Shown here piece by piece: positions 6,408-50,626 of a stretch of DNA of 56,023 nucleotides. This DNA comes from Dehalococcoidales bacterium (GTDB lineage: Bacteria > Chloroflexota > Dehalococcoidia > Dehalococcoidales > RBG-16-60-22), in assembly GCA_034432135.1 (NCBI GenBank), contig DAOUCO010000069.1:1-56023 (forward strand). Reading direction: 5' to 3'. The position numbers and the translations under genes were made by a program. Numbering within the stretch: the stretch's first letter is position 1; the number at the start of each line of letters is the position of its first letter. The notes under the pieces are model-generated. The model did no database searches and was not told the origin of the DNA. It saw only the letters and a program-made list of their open reading frames with translations.

Positions 6408-6777
6408 AAATCGTCCTCTGTTGTTATTATAACATTTTACCACTTTATACTCACCCCCTTAACCCCCTCTCAAACATTTTCGCCTTGCAGGGCTATATTT
6501 TTTATATTTCAAAGGAGGATGGGTAAGGAGAGGGGGGCTTCGCCCCCTCTCGCAGAATGTCCCCCTAACGCTTAAATAGTCGCTGGTAATCCGCTAATTA
6601 TGACAAGGCGGAGACGAGAAAAGAGAAGGATGGAATCCTCCCTAAGCTACGTCCCCCTATGGACAAAATTGATATTACACCTTATAATCCAGATGTATGC
6701 CTCCAATCCAGTAATTACCAGGTGCAGCCGAGGGCACCTTAAATTGAGCTTCACTCTACCATAGTGAGGAGGAAAAA

Positions 6778-7062
6778 ATGTCGCTTTATATTATGATGAG
6801 CACCCTGACCGACGAAGGCCGAAAAACGGTAAAAACCAACCCTTACAGAATTAAAGAGGTCAACAAAGAAGTCGAAGCAATGGGAGTGAAAATTCTCGCC
6901 CAGTACGTTACCCTAGGGCAGTATGACTTTATCAACGTCCTGGAAGCGCCTAACAACGAGGTCATCGCTAAAGTAGCCATCGAGCTGGGGTCGCGCGGGA
7001 CGCTCCAGACCAGCACCCTCTCCGCCCTAACGCTGGACGATTTTATAAGAGCACTTAAATAA
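6778..7062 (+). CDS. GYD domain protein
   Basis: 94 aa with the LGQYDF (GxYD) core typical of the GYD family. RBS GAGGAGG. Confidence 0.7.
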   Translation: MSLYIMMSTLTDEGRKTVKTNPYRIKEVNKEVEAMGVKILAQYVTLGQYDFINVLEAPNNEVIAKVAIELGSRGTLQTSTLSALTLDDFIRALK

Positions 7063-7138
7063 TACTGATATTTAATAATGCAACGGTGCCCTTCGGCTGC
7101 CTGACTGCCCGATTCAGCGTAATAACTGGAGGACAATC

Positions 7139-8287
7139 ATCAGACCTCTTAGCTTTAGCCAGATTTCACTTTACCAGCAATGTCCATGGTGCTATAAGCT
7201 GCAATATATCGACGGACTAAAGGGCAAAGAGAAATGGTATTTCAGCTTTGGCACACACATGCATTCATGTGTGGAACGGTTCTTTAAAGTACGCACGCCA
7301 CCGCCTCCTTCACTTGAAGAAATGATGCAATTCTACGAGGAAAACTGGCTCTCGCAAGGATACGAATCGCCGGAAGAGGAGGCTAGATACAAGGACTATA
7401 GTAAGGACATTTTAAAGCGCTTCTGGGAAATTCACACAACCGATTTCCACCTGCCGATAGCGCTGGAACGCAGCTTTAACCTGGATATCGAGGGGATAAA
7501 GTTGAGGGGATTTATCGACCGGGTGGATAAACTGGAGAGCGGTGGGCTTTCCATCATCGACTACAAGACGAACCAGGAACTCTTCACCAAAGAATATCTG
7601 GAAAACGACCTCCAACTCACGATTTACCAGATGGCGGCCGAGCAGACCTGGGACCTGCCGGTGGAAAGGCTAACACTCTATCATCTAAGGTCGAATACGG
7701 CGTGCACCTGCCCACCGCGGGATAAAGACCGAATCGACCAGACCAAACAACTGGTCCTGGACGTGGCAGAAAAAATCAATAAAGGTGTATTCCCAGCTAC
7801 GGAAAGTGAATATTGTCCCTGCGATTTCCCGGAATATTGTCCGTACTACCGCCACCAGCACATCAAAGCAGAAATAAAGCCGGACCGACAGGAACTCCTG
7901 CCCGGCATCGTCGCGGCAGAAGCCGTCGAGCGATATGCCGAATTGCAGGCACAAATGAAAGAACTGGAAGCCCAGCTTGAAGAAACAAGGCAAACAATTA
8001 TCGATTACTGCCAGGCGGCAGGGCTGAACCGCGTCTTCGGGAGCGAGCATGAAATCACGTATAAACTCATAGAAAAAACAGGATTTAAAGAAGATGAGAT
8101 TAAAGCCATTTTAGAGCCGGAAGGGCTGTGGGAAAAGGTGCTGGGATTCGACCAGTCACTTTTAAAGAAGCTCATGGCCGACAAGGGAATCTCCACCGAT
8201 ATCAGGAAAAAATTAGAGTCGCTGAAAAGGATAGTATCAACATATCCCCAGCTATGGTTGCGTAAAAGCGGCGGCGAAGAAGAATGA
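7139..8287 (+). CDS. PD-(D/E)XK (Cas4/RecB-like) nuclease with C-terminal coiled-coil extension; probable non-canonical start
   Basis: Motifs GFIDRVD...IIDYKT (D..DxK), QLTIYQ (QxxxY) and a C-terminal Cys cluster CPCDFPEYC. The frame is open from 7079 and encodes the expected N-terminal Cys motif SFSQISLYQQCPWCYKLQY upstream of the first ATG (7259). GGAGG at 7128-7132 precedes an in-frame ATC at 7139. Confidence 0.65.
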   Translation: MRPLSFSQISLYQQCPWCYKLQYIDGLKGKEKWYFSFGTHMHSCVERFFKVRTPPPPSLEEMMQFYEENWLSQGYESPEEEARYKDYSKDILKRFWEIHTTDFHLPIALERSFNLDIEGIKLRGFIDRVDKLESGGLSIIDYKTNQELFTKEYLENDLQLTIYQMAAEQTWDLPVERLTLYHLRSNTACTCPPRDKDRIDQTKQLVLDVAEKINKGVFPATESEYCPCDFPEYCPYYRHQHIKAEIKPDRQELLPGIVAAEAVERYAELQAQMKELEAQLEETRQTIIDYCQAAGLNRVFGSEHEITYKLIEKTGFKEDEIKAILEPEGLWEKVLGFDQSLLKKLMADKGISTDIRKKLESLKRIVSTYPQLWLRKSGGEEE

Positions 8288-8297
8288 GGAGAAAATC

Positions 8298-8903
8298 ATG
8301 GCGAGACTGCTGCTGATAAGACACGGTACAACCAAACTGCATAAAAACGACCGGTTCTGGGGCAAGACGGATGTACCTTTAAGCAACATCGGCATAAAGC
8401 AGGCGGGATTATTACGCACCCGTCTAGCAACAGAGAAAATAGGCACAGTTTACACCAGCACATTAAGTCGCGCCCGAGACACCGCCGAGATTATCGCCGC
8501 CGGACATAAGGCAAAGCTCGAGGTCTGCGAAGAACTTTGCGAATGTAATTTCGGGTTTGTCGAAGGTCTTACCTTCAGCGAAATAGAACATGTTTATCCG
8601 GCTTTAGCCGAGGAGCTAGCCAGCTGGAAAACAGTCGCTTTTCCCGGCGGAGAAACGCTCGACCAACTTAACGAGCGGGTGAAAATGTTTTTAAAAAGGC
8701 TGGGAAATCTCAAAGCTAAAGATACCGCAGCCATCGTTTCCCACGGGGGACCGCTGCGACTGATAATCTGCAATTTAATGGGGATGGATATAAAACACTG
8801 GCAGCAATTTCGTATAGACCGGGGCTCATTGAGCATTATGGAAACGTACCCAGAGACGGCTATCTTACTCTCGCTCAACGATATTACTCATTTAAAACCT
8901 TAA
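8298..8903 (+). CDS. Histidine phosphatase family protein (phosphoglycerate mutase / alpha-ribazole phosphatase-like)
   Basis: LIRHGTT catalytic motif and a C-terminal SHGGPLR. Confidence 0.8.
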   Translation: MARLLLIRHGTTKLHKNDRFWGKTDVPLSNIGIKQAGLLRTRLATEKIGTVYTSTLSRARDTAEIIAAGHKAKLEVCEELCECNFGFVEGLTFSEIEHVYPALAEELASWKTVAFPGGETLDQLNERVKMFLKRLGNLKAKDTAAIVSHGGPLRLIICNLMGMDIKHWQQFRIDRGSLSIMETYPETAILLSLNDITHLKP

Positions 8904-8913
8904 GGACGGCAGC

Positions 8914-9588
8914 ATGGTCAAGGCATTTGCATCATGGAGCGGCGGCAAGGACGGCTGCCTGGCGCTTTACAGGGCGAAGCAGGCGGGCATGGACATCCGG
9001 TTTCTCATAAATATGGTATCGGAGGACGGGCAACGCTCGTGCAGTCACGGCATCCGCGCGGAGGTTATAAAAAAACAGGCGGAAGCACTGGGGATAGCTA
9101 TCGTGCAAAAACCTACGACCACCGATATCTACGAGAAAATATTCAGCGACACAGTTAAAGAATTGAAAAAGAAGGGCGTGAAAGCCGGCGTCTTCGGGGA
9201 TATAGACTTTCAGCCGCACCGGGAGTGGGACGAAAGGGTCTGCGCTGCCGTCGGCGTTACCGCAAACCTTCCTCTCTGGCAAGAAGACCAGACAAAACTC
9301 ATGGAAGAATTTATCGATGCCGGATTCAAGTCGGTGGTCGTTGCGGTGAAAGCCGACCTGCTGGGAAAAGAGACGTTAGGGAAAACAGTCGACAGGGAGT
9401 TTTTAGGTTATGTCAAAGCATTAAATAAAGATATCACGCCCTGCGGCGAGGCGGGGGAATATCATACACTTGTTACCGACGGGCCTATATTTAAAAAGCA
9501 ATTAGAAATCGTCGAAGCTAAAAAAGTGAGCCGGGGAGAGCACCATTTCTTGGAGATTCTGAAAACGAAGCTGACGACAAAAAAATGA
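8914..9588 (+). CDS. ATP-binding PP-loop protein of the MJ0570/Dph6 (diphthine-ammonia ligase-like) family
   Basis: SWSGGKDG PP-loop, GDID...REW, LPLW and CGEAGEYHTLVTDGPIF motifs. Confidence 0.75.
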   Translation: MVKAFASWSGGKDGCLALYRAKQAGMDIRFLINMVSEDGQRSCSHGIRAEVIKKQAEALGIAIVQKPTTTDIYEKIFSDTVKELKKKGVKAGVFGDIDFQPHREWDERVCAAVGVTANLPLWQEDQTKLMEEFIDAGFKSVVVAVKADLLGKETLGKTVDREFLGYVKALNKDITPCGEAGEYHTLVTDGPIFKKQLEIVEAKKVSRGEHHFLEILKTKLTTKK

Positions 9589-18264: not shown

Positions 18265-19440
18265 ATGAAATTAGTTGTGGTTGGTTTCGGGCAGTGCGGC
18301 GGCAGAATAGCTGACGAATTCGCCCGCTTAAATAAAAGAGCACTAGGCTTGCGCGGTTTAAACCTCATCACCGGGGCTTATGCCGTCAATACGGATATAG
18401 CCGACCTCAGCGGGCTGACGACGATTAAGTCCAACTTCGAGCACCGAATACTTATCGGCAACAAAAAGACGCAAGGTCACGGCGTGGGAAAAATCAACGA
18501 GCTTGGCGCGGAAATCGCCCACGAGGATGCCGATAAGGTCATCGAGACAATCAGAAGCACAGAACACTTTGCCGAAACAGATGCATTCCTGCTTTGCGCA
18601 GGGGCGGCGGGGGGCACAGGTTCTGGCGCAATATCCATAATGACGCAGCAGATAAAAGAGCGCTACGTAGATAGACCGGTCTACAACCTTATAGTATTGC
18701 CATTCGAGCATGAGGTCGCTACGGAGGAAAGGACGGTATATAACGTAGCTACCTGCTTAAAGTCCAGCTATCTAGTGGCAGATGCCATATTTCTCGTCGA
18801 TAACCAGAGATACGTGATGAAAGACGCTTCATTGATAAACAATCTTACTCGAATTAACATGATGATTGTGAAACCATTTTTCAATCTTCTTTGTGCCGGC
18901 GAAGAGAAAAGGACACGATACATCGGCGCCAAGATTCTGGATGCCGGGGACATCATCCAGACCTTAGTGGGCTGGACAACTATCGGTTACGGAAGGTCAC
19001 AGACGGGAATATTCAAGTCGTTTCTCGGCGGGCCTCGCGACTTCCGTAAAAAAGCCTCGGAAACCCAGCGTGGCATTCACGCCCTTGATGAAGCTATAAC
19101 CAGCCTATCCGTCAAGTGTAATCCGCTGGACTCAAAACGGGCGCTTTATCTGGTATCCGCTCCCGCCAAGGAAATCAATGTAGACCTGATAAAAGAACTC
19201 GGTACTTACATTAAAAATATGGCGCCAGAAGCCGTCATCAGGAGCGGCGATTATCCGAGAGAAAAAGGCAACCTGGATGTCACCGTAATTCTCTCGGAGA
19301 TGAGCGATGTGGAGAAGGTAAGGAGCTATTTCGCCAAAGCCATCAGACTCATCGCCGAACTGAAGAAACGTCAAGAAGGCTTAGTAAGCACACAGCGAGA
19401 GATTGATGTTTCGATTAAAGACATTCCCTCGCTGTTATAA
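18265..19440 (+). CDS. Tubulin/FtsZ-superfamily GTPase, CetZ/tubulin-flavoured (paralogue 1)
   Basis: T1 GFGQCGGRIA, T3-like GHGVGKINELGAEIA, tubulin signature AAGGTGSGA, base-contact LVDNQRYV, T7-like LDAGDIIQT, and C-terminal KDIPSLL. Confidence 0.8.
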   Translation: MKLVVVGFGQCGGRIADEFARLNKRALGLRGLNLITGAYAVNTDIADLSGLTTIKSNFEHRILIGNKKTQGHGVGKINELGAEIAHEDADKVIETIRSTEHFAETDAFLLCAGAAGGTGSGAISIMTQQIKERYVDRPVYNLIVLPFEHEVATEERTVYNVATCLKSSYLVADAIFLVDNQRYVMKDASLINNLTRINMMIVKPFFNLLCAGEEKRTRYIGAKILDAGDIIQTLVGWTTIGYGRSQTGIFKSFLGGPRDFRKKASETQRGIHALDEAITSLSVKCNPLDSKRALYLVSAPAKEINVDLIKELGTYIKNMAPEAVIRSGDYPREKGNLDVTVILSEMSDVEKVRSYFAKAIRLIAELKKRQEGLVSTQREIDVSIKDIPSLL

Positions 19441-19593: not shown

Positions 19594-20079
19594 CTATCTG
19601 GCTATCTTGGAGTAAATTTGCCAGGCCTGTTCGATAGTCTCGTCGCGAACCTGCCAGGCTCGCTCGATGGTGCTATCACGATTATTGGCGGCTTCGGCAA
19701 TTGCCGCTTCATAAGCACTATCAGCAGACTTTACAGCGCTCTTATATTCTTCTTCAGCCTGCTGTATAGCCGCTTCCCGGGCGCTGGCGGCATTAGCTAA
19801 CGCTTCCTCCCGCTGTTTCATCGCTTTAGCTACAGCAGAGGCATAAGCGCGAGTAGCCTGCTGTTCTGCCCGACGGTAGGCTTTAGCTACCTGCATTTCA
19901 TTCTCGTGATAAGCCTTAGCGACCTGCCGCTCGGCGTCCATATAAGCGGCATAAGCCCTTTCGGCCTGACTCATTACTTCGTCGAGAGGATTGGTAGAGC
20001 GTTCTTCTTCTTCTTCTTTTGGTTCTTCAGCTTGGATGGCTTCTTCAGCCGCGTGACCTTTTTTCTTCTTGGTAGGCAC
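19594..20079 (-). CDS. Hendecad-repeat alpha-helical protein with a Lys/Glu-rich N-terminus
   Basis: 161 aa with RBS AAGGAGGTG. Aromatic residues recur every 11 aa (Y46/57/68/79, Y112/123, W142/153). No TM segment or signal peptide. Confidence 0.7.
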   Translation of the reverse strand: MPTKKKKGHAAEEAIQAEEPKEEEEERSTNPLDEVMSQAERAYAAYMDAERQVAKAYHENEMQVAKAYRRAEQQATRAYASAVAKAMKQREEALANAASAREAAIQQAEEEYKSAVKSADSAYEAAIAEAANNRDSTIERAWQVRDETIEQAWQIYSKIAR

Positions 20080-20253: not shown

Positions 20254-22353
20254 TTAATCTTGATCGTCCTCATCCTTAGATTCTTCCTCATCAGGCTTTA
20301 ATTTTTTAGCTTCATACATTTTAGAGAGCAGTTCCAGGCGCTCCGCCATCTTTTTTCTGGCTTCTCTGGGTGTTTCCCGAAGAGGTTCAACAGGTTTTTC
20401 TTTATGCATTTTGCCGAGTTTGCCTGTTTTATCTAATTTCTTTACCGATTCTTTCAAGGTATCGAGGACCGCCTTGGTATCCTCAATAGTGGCTTCGGTC
20501 TCTTCTTCAGTGTATTCCCTGGTTTCATCAACCGGCTGTTCCTCCGCAACTTCAGGGACAGGCTCCTCTTCTTTTTTCTTGCTCTTTTTAACAGCTTCCT
20601 CACGTGACTTCGAAGCAATTATATCGTCACCGATTTCTTCAGCGGCAGGTACAGGCGAGCCAGTGATTCTCCCGGTCACCCCGGCTGCTATATCCGTAGC
20701 TTCTTTGATAGCTTTTAGAGTTCTTTCCGCTGATTCTCTAGAAGCCCTAACGAGGGCATCAGTCACTTCGCGGGCAGTTTTTACCGCCGCTTCCGACGCC
20801 TCTCTGGTTTCAAGGCTGATTTGCTGCGCCCTGGCAATGGCCAACTGTATTTCTTTTTCTGTGGATTCAGCCAATTTTCTGACAGACGAAATAGTGCTAT
20901 CGATAGTCTCACGGACAGTGTTTAATGCTTCTTCAGAAGCCTCGCGGGCGGAGTTATTTATTTCGTTGGCAGTTGCTATGATTTTTTCAGATTCTGTTTT
21001 TAAAGACTCGATAGCTTCACGCGCCGTCCTGGATGATTCTTCAGCCGATGCCCGGGAGGCATTGACAATTTCTTCAATGCGACTGATTAAGTCCCGGAGC
21101 TCTGCAGTAGTGGCAGCCGCTCTTTCCGAAACTTCTTTGCTTATCTGTTCAGCTCTAAAAATAGCCTCCTTTGATTCCACCACCGATTTTTCGGCCGCGG
21201 CTTCAGCAGCAGCGGCGGCTTTTTTCCCTTCTTCCTGGGCTTGTATGATAGCTTCCTGTATCGTTTTTACCGATTCATCGGCAGCTTTGACAGCATCGCT
21301 GCTGGCCTGTTCCGCCCTGGTAACAGCCTCCTGGAATTTGCGGGCGGCTTCAGCGGCATTTTCTTTAGCTTCTTGGCTGATGGCATCAGCGCGGGCAATA
21401 GCATCCTGGGCGGCTTTAGTAGCGGCTTCCGTAGCCTCATGTGTTTCACGGGCTACTTCTTCAACTCGTTTAATCGTTTCCTGAGCGGCTTTTTGCGCTG
21501 CTTCAACAGCCTGCTTCATTTCACGGCTGATAGCCTCAACACGATTCATAGTTTCCTGGGATGTCCTGTGTGAAGATTCAGCCAACTCACGAGCAACAGT
21601 ACTAATAGTTTCGGCGCGTTTGGCGGCTTCTTCCGATACCCTAGCGGCAATTTCAGCACTTTCCCTGGTTGACTTACTGACTTTTTCAGCTTTTATGCTG
21701 GTCTCTCTGGCGATTTTATTGGTATTATCAGCGGCGTCTTTAGCTTCTTTAGCTAAACGTTCAGCCCGCGTGGTAACTTCTTTAGCAACTTTAATAGATT
21801 CTTCGGCTGCTTCCTTAGCGGATTTTACGGCTAATTCAGCTTTACTGAGTGCATCTTGAGATATCTCTCTGGCAGATTCAGCTGTTTTTTTAGCTTCACG
21901 GCTTATCTCTTCGATACGGCTCAATCCGGTTTGTGACAGCATTAATGCAGACTCGGCGGACTGCATGGCATCCCGGCTGATTTTTTCTGCCCGGGCGATA
22001 GCTTCCTGAAAAGCCTTAGCCATAGCCTCGGTGGTCTGCTGGGGGCGTTTAGCAACTTCTTCGGCTTTTTTAATAGCCTCATCGGCGGCCCTCAAGGTCG
22101 CCACCATAGCTTCCTTGGATTCGCGGCTGATTTTTTCCGCGCGGTCGATAGCATCCTGGGCGGCTTTAGCCGCTGCTTCGGCGGCCGCCGTGGCTTCTTT
22201 ACCGATTTGCTCGGCACGCATAGCCGCCTCGATTGCCGTTTTGGTCGACCTTCCAGCTGCTTCTTTGGCAGCACGGCTTAAAGCTTCAGCCCTGGCTACC
22301 GCTTTTTCAAAATCGGTAATGTTGTTTTCTAATTCCTGTAACTCCGGCGACAT
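20254..22353 (-). CDS. 699-aa Ala/Glu/Lys-rich protein built from ~21 tandem 25-residue helical repeats plus an acidic/basic C-terminal tail
   Basis: Long uninterrupted ORF with repeat consensus RAExISxEAKxAAExAxKxxQEAIx. No TM segment or signal peptide. Confidence 0.8.
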   Translation of the reverse strand: MSPELQELENNITDFEKAVARAEALSRAAKEAAGRSTKTAIEAAMRAEQIGKEATAAAEAAAKAAQDAIDRAEKISRESKEAMVATLRAADEAIKKAEEVAKRPQQTTEAMAKAFQEAIARAEKISRDAMQSAESALMLSQTGLSRIEEISREAKKTAESAREISQDALSKAELAVKSAKEAAEESIKVAKEVTTRAERLAKEAKDAADNTNKIARETSIKAEKVSKSTRESAEIAARVSEEAAKRAETISTVARELAESSHRTSQETMNRVEAISREMKQAVEAAQKAAQETIKRVEEVARETHEATEAATKAAQDAIARADAISQEAKENAAEAARKFQEAVTRAEQASSDAVKAADESVKTIQEAIIQAQEEGKKAAAAAEAAAEKSVVESKEAIFRAEQISKEVSERAAATTAELRDLISRIEEIVNASRASAEESSRTAREAIESLKTESEKIIATANEINNSAREASEEALNTVRETIDSTISSVRKLAESTEKEIQLAIARAQQISLETREASEAAVKTAREVTDALVRASRESAERTLKAIKEATDIAAGVTGRITGSPVPAAEEIGDDIIASKSREEAVKKSKKKEEEPVPEVAEEQPVDETREYTEEETEATIEDTKAVLDTLKESVKKLDKTGKLGKMHKEKPVEPLRETPREARKKMAERLELLSKMYEAKKLKPDEEESKDEDDQD
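20749..22293 (-). repeat. Coding tandem repeat array (75-nt / 25-codon period)
   Basis: Residues 21-370 split into 14 consecutive blocks of exactly 25 aa, each starting R/K-A/V/I-E/D. Residues 371-535 continue with 25-29-aa blocks. Confidence 0.8.
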
Positions 22354-22521
22354 TACCTCGTCCTTTTTTGATAACTATCTGTTATCAGCATAGACTATTA
22401 TATTATCCGCACGCCAGTTTTTCAATAAACATATCTATCTTATAATAAATATCTATCTAATAATGAGTATGAAACGTTATAATAATTAGTACTAACTTAA
22501 AAAATACTTCGATGAGGATAA

Positions 22522-22550
22522 TTGACATTATCATTTTATTGTGTAAAAAT
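22522..22550 (+). promoter_or_regulatory. Promoter of tubulin-like gene 2 (ATTGACAT-N-GTAAAAAT)
   Basis: TTGACA at 22522-22527, a 16-17-nt spacer, then TAAAAA/AAAAAT. It shares the ATTGACAT and GTAAAA context with 18206-18235. Confidence 0.5.
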
Positions 22551-22578
22551 AACATAAATTTATAAAGTGAGGTGAAAT

Positions 22579-23751
22579 ATGAAACTCGTAGTTCTCGGCC
22601 TGGGACAATGCGGCGGCCGAATTGCCGACGAATTCGCCCGGCTTAATGGTAAAGCTAAAGCAAGGCGCGGTATGACCATAGTTACGGGATGTTTTGCGGT
22701 AAATACCGATGCTGCCGATTTAAGCGGTCTATCCAGCATCCCTAAAGACCATCGGCATCGCATACTTATAGGAGCACGCAAGACCGGCGGCCACGGCGTG
22801 GGAAAAATCAACGAACTGGGCGCTGAGATTGCGAAAGAGGATTCCGATAAAATCATCGAAAACCTGCGTAATACCAAGAAATTCTTCGAGACCGATGCTT
22901 TTATGCTTATCGCCGGGACAGCCGGCGGCACCGGTTCCGGAGCAATTTCCGTAGTCACGCAGCACCTGAAGGAACGCTATATCGATAAGCCGATATGGAA
23001 CCTGCTAGTCTTACCTTTCGAGCATGAAGAAACGACGGAAGAGCGGACGGTATTCAATGTAGCCACCTGTCTCAAGTCCTGCTACTCGGTGGCCGACGCC
23101 GTTTTCCTAGTTGATAACCAGAGGTATGTCAGGAAGGATTCCTCTCTCCAGACCAACCTTACCAAGATCAATGCCATGATTGCCGACCCGTTTTATAACC
23201 TGCTCTGCGCCGGCGAAGAGAAAAAGTCCAGATACATCGGCGCCAAGCTGATTGATGCCGGAGATATTATACAGACCGTAGTAGGCTGGACAGTCATTGG
23301 CTACGGCAAGACAACCGCACCGCTGTTCAAACTGCCGGAGTTGAGGAGTGATTTCCGTAAGAAAGGCGCCGAAATCCAGAAGGGCATCCAGGCGATGGAT
23401 GAAGCCATCAGCGAACTATCGTTGAAATGTAATCCCGCCGATTCGCGGCGAGCCTTATATCTGGTATCCGGGCCTGCCAAGGAAATGAACATGGATATGA
23501 TTAAGGAAATCGGCGATTACATGAGAGATATAGCACCGGAAGCTATTATACGGAACGGCGATTATCCTCGGGAAAGAGGCGTGGTGGATGTTACCGTGCT
23601 GCTTTCCGAGCTTAGCGACGTAGAGAAGGTGAGGGACTACTATCTCCGCTCCACCGATCTCATCCCCGAGTTCAAGAAGCGGCAGGAAGAGACCGAAGAT
23701 AAACTAAGGGCTCTGGAGGACGTTTCTAAAGATATTCCTTCGCTGCTATGA
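22579..23751 (+). CDS. Tubulin/FtsZ-superfamily GTPase (paralogue 2)
   Basis: Colinear with 18265-19440 over its full length, roughly two-thirds identical by eye. Motifs GLGQCGGRIA, GTAGGTGSGA, LVDNQRYV, IDAGDIIQT, and C-terminal KDIPSLL. Confidence 0.8.
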   Translation: MKLVVLGLGQCGGRIADEFARLNGKAKARRGMTIVTGCFAVNTDAADLSGLSSIPKDHRHRILIGARKTGGHGVGKINELGAEIAKEDSDKIIENLRNTKKFFETDAFMLIAGTAGGTGSGAISVVTQHLKERYIDKPIWNLLVLPFEHEETTEERTVFNVATCLKSCYSVADAVFLVDNQRYVRKDSSLQTNLTKINAMIADPFYNLLCAGEEKKSRYIGAKLIDAGDIIQTVVGWTVIGYGKTTAPLFKLPELRSDFRKKGAEIQKGIQAMDEAISELSLKCNPADSRRALYLVSGPAKEMNMDMIKEIGDYMRDIAPEAIIRNGDYPRERGVVDVTVLLSELSDVEKVRDYYLRSTDLIPEFKKRQEETEDKLRALEDVSKDIPSLL

Positions 23752-36112: not shown

Positions 36113-36235
36113 ACTCAGGGAAAACGAAGTACAAAATTGTTAAATTATAGCCATCATGGAAATTCATGCCCTTGGTTGGCAGTTGGTTGACAATATTGCC
36201 TTCGTTACAGTATCATACAAGAAATTGAATATTTA

Positions 36236-36320
36236 CTAGGGGAGCTGAAAGGCTGAGAGTCCTGAAAGGGACAACCCTCATTACCTGATCTCGATAATGC
36301 GAGCGTAGGGAAGTGAGAGA
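36236..36320 (+). promoter_or_regulatory. TPP (THI-box) riboswitch
   Basis: GGGGAGC...GCTGAGA...ACCCTCATTACCTGATCTCGATAATGCGAGCGTAGGGAA matches the THI element core. A TTGACA-N18-TATCAT promoter lies at 36187-36216. Confidence 0.85.
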
Positions 36321-36325
36321 TGTTA

Positions 36326-36365
36326 AACCAGAAGGCTAATTATATTTCAGCTTCTGGTTTTTTAT
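36326..36365 (+). terminator. Riboswitch expression-platform terminator
   Basis: AACCAGAAG...CTTCTGGTT stem followed by a T-run, upstream of thi4. Confidence 0.7.
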
Positions 36366-50535: not shown

Positions 50536-50626
50536 GGAGGGGTGGCCGAGCGGACTATGGCGACGGTCTTGAAAACCGTTTCTCGATTATATCGGGACGT
50601 GGGTTCGAATCCCACCCCCTCCGCCA
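50536..50626 (+). tRNA. tRNA-Ser (anticodon UGA), encoded CCA
   Basis: 7-bp acceptor stem GGAGGGG/CCCCTCC, anticodon stem-loop ACGGT-CTTGAAA-ACCGT, long variable arm, T-arm GTGGG-TTCGAAT-CCCAC, and discriminator G plus CCA. Confidence 0.95.

Follow-up and report, generated by a model that had tools for sequence, protein, structure and literature searches.

BtubC (Bklc), a tetratricopeptide repeat (TPR) protein encoded in the btubAB operon of Prosthecobacter, binds and stabilises BtubA/B filaments. CetZ, another tubulin-family protein, has been described as archaea-specific (PMC9856176), and in archaea CetZ1 governs the shape of the cell (bioRxiv 10.1101/2024.04.08.588506). CetZ has an essential, hydrophobic C-terminal tail, and no dedicated CetZ partner proteins are known (PMC9856176; bioRxiv 10.1101/2024.04.08.588506). 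CetZ-like sequences have been noted once in Dehalococcoidia, without partners (PMC9871819). Here, we describe a 699-residue protein, hereafter the repeat protein, encoded between two CetZ-like tubulin genes in a 56,023-nucleotide stretch of DNA from a Dehalococcoidales bacterium (contig DAOUCO010000069.1). We refer to this whole stretch as the window. The 25-residue periodicity of the repeat protein is confirmed as real and lies far above chance. Its near-constant linkage to CetZ-like tubulin genes suggests that it is most likely an accessory of the tubulin cytoskeleton. Like BtubC, it is a helical-repeat protein encoded beside two horizontally acquired bacterial tubulin paralogues. Unlike BtubC, it has no TPR or other Pfam domain, and its repeat is a continuous 25-residue helical period rather than a series of helix-turn-helix units. 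Furthermore, the Prosthecobacter tubulins are BtubA/B, whereas the neighbours here are CetZ-like, and structure 2BTQ matches a flanking tubulin with only E 1.2e-4. No description of the repeat protein, or of the four-gene cassette in which it lies, was found in the literature.

A 25-residue helical period

The original prediction, made by a model from the sequence alone, concerned positions 20749..22293, which correspond to residues 21-535 of the repeat protein. The complete gene and its parts are as follows.

20254..22353, minus strand: repeat protein gene, 699 residues from ATG to stop (from the list of open reading frames; orthologues intact in ~140 loci)
22294..22353, minus strand: N-terminal cap, residues 1-20 (defined by orthologue conservation; consensus NIxDFEKAVA, then the first RAE)
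21169..22293, minus strand: strict 25-residue array, residues 21-395 (14 clear units and 1 degenerate unit)
22042..22044, minus strand: codon for Pro104 (unit 4, position 9), the only conserved proline of the rod
21925..21927, minus strand: codon for Gly143 (unit 5, position 23), conserved, a possible kink
20665..21168, minus strand: second half of the rod, residues 396-563 (mixed unit spacings; hydrophobic period 3.605)
20371..20664, minus strand: variable, charged, Pro-containing linker, residues 564-661 (AlphaFold per-residue confidence, pLDDT, <50; coil by DSSP; indels; low conservation)
20308..20370, minus strand: conserved C-terminal helix, residues 662-682 (family consensus RLExLxxMYE)
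20254..20307, minus strand: acidic C-terminal tail, residues 683-699, and stop codon (read from the sequence)

Cutting the protein from residue 21 reproduces the 14 exact, indel-free blocks that had been predicted. Residues 21-370 form 14 gap-free stretches of 25 amino acids, each opening R/K-A/V/I-E/D. When these blocks were made into a repeat hidden Markov model (HMM), it located unit starts at 21, 46 and so on to 346, with a weak unit, in register, at 371. Later units start at 400, 425, 461, 483, 508 and 530, so the spacings become 29, 25, 36, 22, 25 and 22. The total is ~19-21 units, in keeping with the ~21 anticipated, and the consensus is R-A-E-x-I-S-R/K-E-A-K-E-A-A-E-x-A-x-K-x-A-Q-E-A-I-x. 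The apolar seam comprises unit positions 2, 5, 9, 12, 13, 16, 20, 23 and 24. Ala predominates in the seam, and Ile/Val occupy positions 5 and 24.

The periodicity check named in the original prediction gave a clear 25-residue signal, both by autocorrelation and by Fourier analysis. At lag 25, the BLOSUM62 autocorrelation is 1.14, compared with -0.13 +/- 0.09 for shuffled sequences (z ~14). There are harmonics at lags of 50, 75, 100 and 125, with sub-peaks at 11, 14 and 36. For residues 21-395, the hydrophobicity spectrum has a single dominant peak at 3.570 residues (power 63.5). This is the value for seven turns in 25 residues (25/7 = 3.571), as the proposed 7+7+11 division of the unit implied. 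For residues 396-563, the peak is at 3.605 residues.

Intact orthologues, of 643-911 residues, are encoded in ~65 species-representative genomes and in 80 metagenome contigs. In genome-locus orthologues of at least 600 residues (~60 tested), autocorrelation is without exception highest at lag 25. Unit starts in these ~60 proteins are most often separated by 25 residues (827 times), followed by 11 (132), 22 (114), 36 (67) and 47 (44), with 50, 58 and 61 also found. Nearly all such spacings fit 25a+11b. Note that 25 residues make 7 turns and 11 make 3. What is preserved is the phase of the helical seam.

The original prediction also argued for structural selection, rather than recent duplication, and here too the data agree. 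Tandem Repeats Finder detected no 75-bp DNA repeat in the gene, and we rejected recent DNA duplication as the origin of the array. Across 36 aligned orthologues, units 1-10 contain no gaps, and each ordinal unit retains its own sequence identity. We conclude, from the missing 75-bp repeat and the individually conserved units, that the array is old and under selection. Over the first 250 repeat residues, which align without gaps, substitutions at codon positions 1/2/3 number 30/27/114 against one orthologue and 49/43/151 against another, so that most fall on the third position.

Conservation is also marked at single residues and outside the array. Pro104 is invariant in alignment A1 and occurs in 99% of 112 non-identical orthologues. 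Gly143 is nearly invariant in A1 and occurs in 89% of the same 112, among which these are the sole conserved helix breakers. A 125-residue super-repeat, or four-helix bundle, was dropped from consideration, since Pro104 and Gly143 are the only such breakers and lag 125 brings no extra autocorrelation. In the N-terminal cap, I12, E16, V19 and A20 are invariant or nearly so, and the same type of motif recurs in the distant relatives P0023 and P0025. Conservation is good over residues 508-563, and the linker, residues 564-661, is variable with indels. The region beyond the rod had been described as a charged, Pro-containing tail. It is indeed charged, with 9 prolines in residues 564-699, but the conserved helix at residues 662-682 had been missed. 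Here, R672, L673, L676, M679, Y680 and E681 are invariant, and the RLExLxxMYE motif is also found in distant relatives P0009, P0011, P0021, P0023, P0025 and P0026. The acidity of the last 17 residues (683-699) is kept in orthologues and their sequence varies.

Relatives of the repeat protein are easily overlooked. A word-indexed search with the full protein found none among 8000 low-complexity candidates, a result of word saturation and not of absence. An exhaustive search of a representative library yielded nothing beyond fragments and short, distant relatives. This library lacks the full-length orthologues, which are nonetheless encoded in public metagenome-assembled genomes (MAGs). The exact 699-residue sequence, and that of the 161-residue protein described below, are absent from a large protein collection. 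Protein-level searches alone would therefore wrongly suggest an orphan.

A four-gene cassette with CetZ-like tubulins

The original prediction missed the context of the gene, which is locked between two CetZ-like tubulin genes and has a second helical-repeat gene downstream on its own strand. This second gene encodes repeats of 11 residues (hendecads). The remaining parts of the cassette are as follows.

18265..19440, plus strand: CetZ-like tubulin A, 391 residues (PF00091, 105.9 bits; PF21011, CetZ_C, 64.6 bits); convergent to the 161-residue protein gene
19594..20079, minus strand: 161-residue hendecad-repeat protein gene, downstream of the repeat protein gene
22354..22578, no strand assigned: AT-rich divergent intergenic region between the repeat protein gene and tubulin B, with promoter-like sites in both directions
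22579..23751, plus strand: CetZ-like tubulin B, 390 residues (PF00091, 111.5 bits; PF21011, 62.2 bits); divergent from the repeat protein gene

Hence, the order is tubulin A (rightward), the 161-residue protein (leftward), the repeat protein (leftward) and tubulin B (rightward). The same order is found in a near-identical contig. Contig CAZEQI010000014.1 is 99.96% identical to the window over 14.9 kb. In the intergenic region, an SD-like GGACGAGG (resembling a Shine-Dalgarno sequence) lies immediately 5' of the repeat protein ATG. A promoter-like TTGAAA-17-TATAAT is present at 22425-22397 on the minus strand (11/12 matches), and TTGACA-17-AAAAAT, with a TG, on the plus strand faces tubulin B. 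Both are matches to consensus only.

The cassette recurs in ~140 genome and metagenome loci of Dehalococcoidales. The related contigs are Dehalococcoidales MAGs and the neighbours are bacterial housekeeping genes: ligA, pth, eno, gap, dnaX, recR, recO, serS and lysS. Genome loci were found through the tubulin and metagenome loci through the repeat protein alone. Counting only loci with enough flanking sequence, linkage was as follows.

Genome loci (65 at species level): divergent upstream tubulin, 58/59; 161-residue protein gene following, 57/57; convergent downstream tubulin, 54/54
Metagenome loci (80): divergent upstream tubulin, 52/53; 161-residue protein gene following, 60/62; convergent downstream tubulin, 44/44

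Together, the downstream tubulin is present in 98/98 loci. The association also extends beyond the cassette. Distant relatives of the repeat protein (21-29% identity, sharing the N- and C-terminal motifs) adjoin a CetZ-like tubulin gene at three places, in loci L082 and L085 and in the contig encoding P0011, where the gene neighbourhoods are unrelated to that of the cassette. In two of these three places, a gene of ~150 codons lies between the relative and the tubulin, and in L085 this gene proved homologous to that of the 161-residue protein.

These counts bear directly on one alternative, that the protein is a general stress protein or spacer, resembling late embryogenesis abundant (LEA) proteins, for which tubulin adjacency is incidental. 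A composition rich in A, E, K, S and T, and the lack of any recognisable domain, would suit such a role. Incidental adjacency does not account for a downstream tubulin in 98/98 loci, or for a link that persists in other contexts at ~25% identity. Nor would such a protein be expected to have individually conserved units and conserved motifs at both ends. We consider this explanation very improbable and, given the synteny, an unlinked LEA-like hydrophilin is effectively excluded.

The identity of the flanking tubulins follows from several comparisons. A and B are 68% identical to each other, and both score above the cut-offs of PF00091 and PF21011. The solved structures closest to tubulin B are 4B46 and 4B45 (E 3.5e-44 and 6e-28), which we take to be Haloferax volcanii CetZ, and which the PDB labels as FtsZ. 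Chains of FtsZ and tubulin match with E 1e-10 or weaker. Assignment as FtsZ was rejected, because the flanking tubulins score just 56.6 and 56.0 bits with the FtsZ equivalog TIGR00065, far under its cut-off of 295.2. Judged by its sequence, each has the domain features that define CetZ: the GTPase domain, the CetZ C-terminal domain, and closest similarity to CetZ structures. The archaeal host expected of the CetZ family is not found. Instead, hosts are Dehalococcoidales MAGs, in which bacterial dnaX, ligA and recR flank the genes. Dehalococcoidales keep mraZ-mraW-ftsZ-ftsA, have lost peptidoglycan genes and carry an S-layer-like wall (PMC10608941). Since ftsZ-ftsA is kept, the CetZ-like proteins are additional to the division FtsZ.

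Both tubulins share GAK[IL][LI]DAGDIIQT, a stretch whose position suggests the T7 catalytic loop, and have an invariant KDIPSL[LI] peptide at the C-terminus. This tail is similar to its hydrophobic counterpart in archaeal CetZ1 (LESLF), and also to the C-terminal peptide of bacterial FtsZ (DIPxFL). In a neighbour-joining tree, paralogues A and B form separate clades, with the L082 and L085 tubulins branching outside both. The link between repeat protein and tubulin is thus older than the A/B duplication. Lineages that have only a B-type tubulin (L060, L061 and L063) are without the repeat protein and 161-residue protein genes.

Further divergent CetZ-like paralogues, without repeat genes, occur in other Dehalococcoidia. 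L063 has a tandem CetZ-like pair (6761-7939 and 8001-9176). A group at 56% identity, ending KELPNL, is found in L071/L074 (~8001-9176). Another, at 37-39% identity, is found in L079-L081 (~8001-9110), and overlaps by a few bases the next open reading frame, which is RarA-like by eye only.

The 161-residue protein consists of ~ten 11-residue repeats, several of which have Tyr or Trp every 11 residues. In sampled orthologues, 11 is the top autocorrelation lag. The hydrophobic period is 3.655. The core (PLDEVMSQAERAYAAYMDAERQVAKAY...) and C-terminus (IEQAWQIYSKIAR) are almost invariant across the sampled orthologues, and a homologue was confirmed in the distant locus L085. No family could be assigned, and the databases searched hold only six fragmentary relatives. 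One further protein touches on both repeat types. P0020 (L166 57-1049, 330 residues) has an N-terminus weakly like the 161-residue core (pairwise E 5e-4), followed by units like those of the repeat protein, and may be a fusion of the two partners.

Predicted structure and candidate roles

The original prediction envisaged a long helical rod, and both of our AlphaFold2 runs give near-continuous helix over the rod. The full-length model has helix over residues 3-563, then a disordered linker, a short helix at residues 620-641, and the C-terminal helix, residues 662-682, with pLDDT up to ~85. Both models were built on shallow alignments (A2 and A3). Confidence drops around Pro104 in each (residues 101-109 and 101-105). 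Otherwise, the full-length model (pTM 0.27, the predicted template modelling score) breaks at 141-147, 260-265 and 387-396, whereas a model of residues 1-395 (pTM 0.32) breaks only at 223-228. Since the break points differ between constructs, fold-back points are unreliable. In these models, the chain behaves like one long helix seeking a partner. Foldseek found no match for the full model and, for a fragment, only non-significant long hairpins (chemoreceptors, SMC arms and Maxi antifreeze protein). A continuous helix would give a rod of ~80 nm; folded back, or paired with other chains, it would form a shorter bundle.

Within the rod, large hydrophobic residues make up 17%, and Leu 3.3%. Opposite charges at i/i+4 form 95 pairs, compared with 33.6 +/- 5.0 in shuffles (z = 12); like charges are under-represented at i+4. 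The protein has a pI of 5.1 and a net charge of -28. It is rich in A, E, K, S and T, and has no Trp or Cys. The unit has a hydrophobic moment of 0.55. Its mostly-Ala apolar face has a mean hydrophobicity of -0.24, and basic residues also lie in the middle of the polar face. An excess of opposite charges at i/i+4, and high Ala and Glu/Lys/Arg, are likewise found in ER/K single alpha-helix (SAH) domains. However, SAH domains have no hydrophobic seam, and here the seam is sharp and phase-coherent at 3.57.

The family comparisons named in the original prediction gave no membership signal for apolipoprotein, LEA, spectrin/EzrA or crescentin/FilP. Pfam and NCBIfam assign the window protein to no family; among amphipathic surface-binding families, only DUF948 matches it, with E 0.014. 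Sequence and profile searches of the PDB returned only de novo designed helical bundles, which we rejected as homologues since the match is compositional. EzrA, which the original prediction had suggested for comparison, is also a long helical protein acting on a tubulin-family polymer. No EzrA match was found in the window protein or in 36 orthologues. EzrA has an N-terminal transmembrane anchor, whereas no transmembrane segment is apparent here (the maximum 19-residue Kyte-Doolittle window is 0.49). EzrA is also spectrin-like, and our models show no reproducible triple-helix repeat boundaries.

The main rival to a role alongside tubulin is that the repeat protein self-assembles, like intermediate filament proteins, into nucleotide-independent filaments or a lattice. 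It would then be a coiled-coil rich protein (CCRP), with the tubulins mere neighbours in a shape module. Such a protein might well have an amphipathic helix that runs long and unbroken on a non-heptad period; unusual coiled coils of long period are likewise a feature of Scy and FilP. Similarly, a conserved head and tail flank the rod, as they do in Scy, FilP and crescentin, and in the AlphaFold models the helix doubles back at arbitrary points, as though a partner strand were needed. Conversely, few large hydrophobics, little Leu and a seam of Ala make for a weak homomeric coiled coil. The periods differ too: crescentin has heptads and Scy/FilP a 51-residue repeat, compared with 25/7 plus 11/3 here. 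The Ala seam and ladder of i/i+4 salt bridges further set the protein apart from all three. No similarity to any filament family (Scy, FilP or crescentin) was found in the Pfam and PDB searches, and the near-obligate tubulin linkage would be left unexplained. We regard self-assembly of this kind as rather unlikely.

A second possibility is that the protein coats a membrane or other surface as an amphipathic helix, in the manner of apolipoproteins, phasins, LEA group 3 proteins or alpha-synuclein, and tethers CetZ-like filaments there. The 11- and 22-residue steps, in the second half of the rod and in orthologues, are shared with apolipoprotein A-I, LEA group 3 proteins and phasins. So too are an amphipathic, Ala-rich face and a single conserved Pro within the helix. 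The 161-residue partner is a pure hendecad repeat with Tyr/Trp on one face, and the hydrophobic moment of the unit is high. There are also weak matches among orthologues. Phasin_2 matches 15/36 at E<=1; of 10 orthologues scanned singly, only L073 exceeded the Phasin_2 cut-off (38.5 versus 24.9 bits). The Apolipoprotein model reached 16.9 bits against a cut-off of 90, and ApoLp-III and DUF948 were sub-threshold.

These matches are inconsistent across orthologues, as expected of compositional matches. The window protein has no Phasin_2 match, and nothing of this kind beyond DUF948; it meets no family threshold. Moreover, its dominant period is 25. A net charge of -28 and an acidic pI are unfavourable on anionic bacterial membranes, and the acidic pI and mostly-Ala seam speak against classical lipid binding. 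The low mean hydrophobicity, and basic residues in the middle of the polar face, point the same way, and AlphaFold predicts a stable helix without any surface. We also rejected the C-terminal helix as a membrane-targeting amphipathic helix, because its hydrophobic moment is only 0.11. Taken as a whole, surface coating seems unlikely.

We think it moderately probable that the repeat protein is, instead, an accessory of the CetZ-like tubulin cytoskeleton in Dehalococcoidales. Going by sequence comparison, it would most likely represent a new, lineage-specific family of a known general kind, the helical accessory proteins of tubulin-family cytoskeletons. The protein comprises the conserved cap, ~540 residues of uninterrupted amphipathic helix with a dense ladder of i/i+4 salt bridges on the polar face, the disordered linker, the conserved C-terminal helix and the acidic tail. 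In the first half of the rod, the Ala/Ile seam repeats every 25 residues. In the second half, 25-, 22- and 11-residue steps mix, and the mixture keeps the seam almost straight. The constraint on length is most readily explained by a seam that must stay in phase along the rod, where it could pack on itself, on the hendecad protein, or on a filament. Probably with the 161-residue protein, the rod would bind CetZ-like filaments through its conserved ends, its periodic surface, or both. It might bundle, space or anchor these filaments, and organisation of this sort could help to set the shape of a wall-less cell.

Four points weigh against this proposal. First, gene linkage is a sign of shared function, not of binding. 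Second, AlphaFold confidence is low and the helix breaks shift between constructs. Third, a helix of 25 residues measures 3.75 nm (25 x 0.15 nm), compared with 4.2 nm and 4.5 nm for CetZ1. Fourth, lineages L060, L061 and L063, which are without the repeat and 161-residue proteins, retain the tubulin C-terminal peptide as K[DN][IL]P[ST]LL. The tubulin tail does not, therefore, exist only to bind the repeat protein, and the idea that it exists for this purpose is weakened, as is that of binding through the tail alone.

The third point concerns one version of the accessory role in particular. Tropomyosin, nebulin and GvpC share with the repeat protein a strict repeat length, divergent sequence and conservation of each unit. 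In those proteins, the repeat equals the spacing of partner subunits. By analogy, the rod might bind a filament multivalently, with each 25-residue unit in contact with one subunit of the CetZ-like polymer. The protein would then act as a ruler, setting the length, curvature or spacing of the filament in the way of tropomyosin or nebulin. The modelled CetZ1 lattice repeats every 4.2 nm longitudinally and 4.5 nm laterally (PMC9856176; bioRxiv 10.1101/2024.04.08.588506). The mismatch between 3.75 nm and 4.2 nm disfavours a strict ruler of one unit per subunit, given a straight lattice and a spacing modelled for CetZ1 rather than taken from Dehalococcoidales. A rod might fit if it followed the inside of a curved or helical protofilament, on which each subunit would take up less than 4.2 nm of its path. 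We judge a ruler to be quite unlikely.

Other features and wider significance

Several other observations were made in the window. The open reading frame at 20411..21484 (plus strand, 357 residues) was rejected as a gene, being an antisense, Ser/Ala/Leu low-complexity shadow of the repeat protein gene. Other Ser/Ala/Leu-rich shadows of the same gene are at 21241-21573 (plus strand, 110 residues) and 22031-22393 (plus strand, 120 residues). The AT skew of -0.31 over the region is a by-product of the repetitive Ala/Glu/Lys coding strand. A thiamine pyrophosphate (TPP) riboswitch at 36228-36328 (plus strand; 69.4 bits, above the gathering score), and a tRNA-Ser(TGA) gene at 50536-50626 (plus strand), are unrelated to the repeat protein.

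Units of 25 residues are also present elsewhere. P0036, an 876-residue sensor histidine kinase, has ~15 exact 25-residue helical repeats in residues ~270-640, with an autocorrelation of 1.96 at lag 25 and a motif (QEAIxRAEEExR...) resembling that of the repeat protein. A helical repeat of 25 residues is present as well in P0018, a eukaryote-like ankyrin protein. Other proteins may employ the unit as a rod or spacer.

For coiled-coil biology and design, the repeat protein is relevant as a clean, natural 25/7 phase-locked helix, free of indels over 250-300 residues. A ruler of the kind considered above, if real, would be without precedent among prokaryotic tubulins, and would belong to a bacterium where an archaeal-type cytoskeleton replaces wall-based control of shape. 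More generally, a bacterial order free of peptidoglycan has duplicated CetZ-like genes, locked to the genes for two undescribed helical-repeat proteins. The cassette offers a four-protein, expressible system for studying how a bacterium without a wall organises a tubulin-family cytoskeleton, and could reveal the role of the first CetZ-associated proteins.

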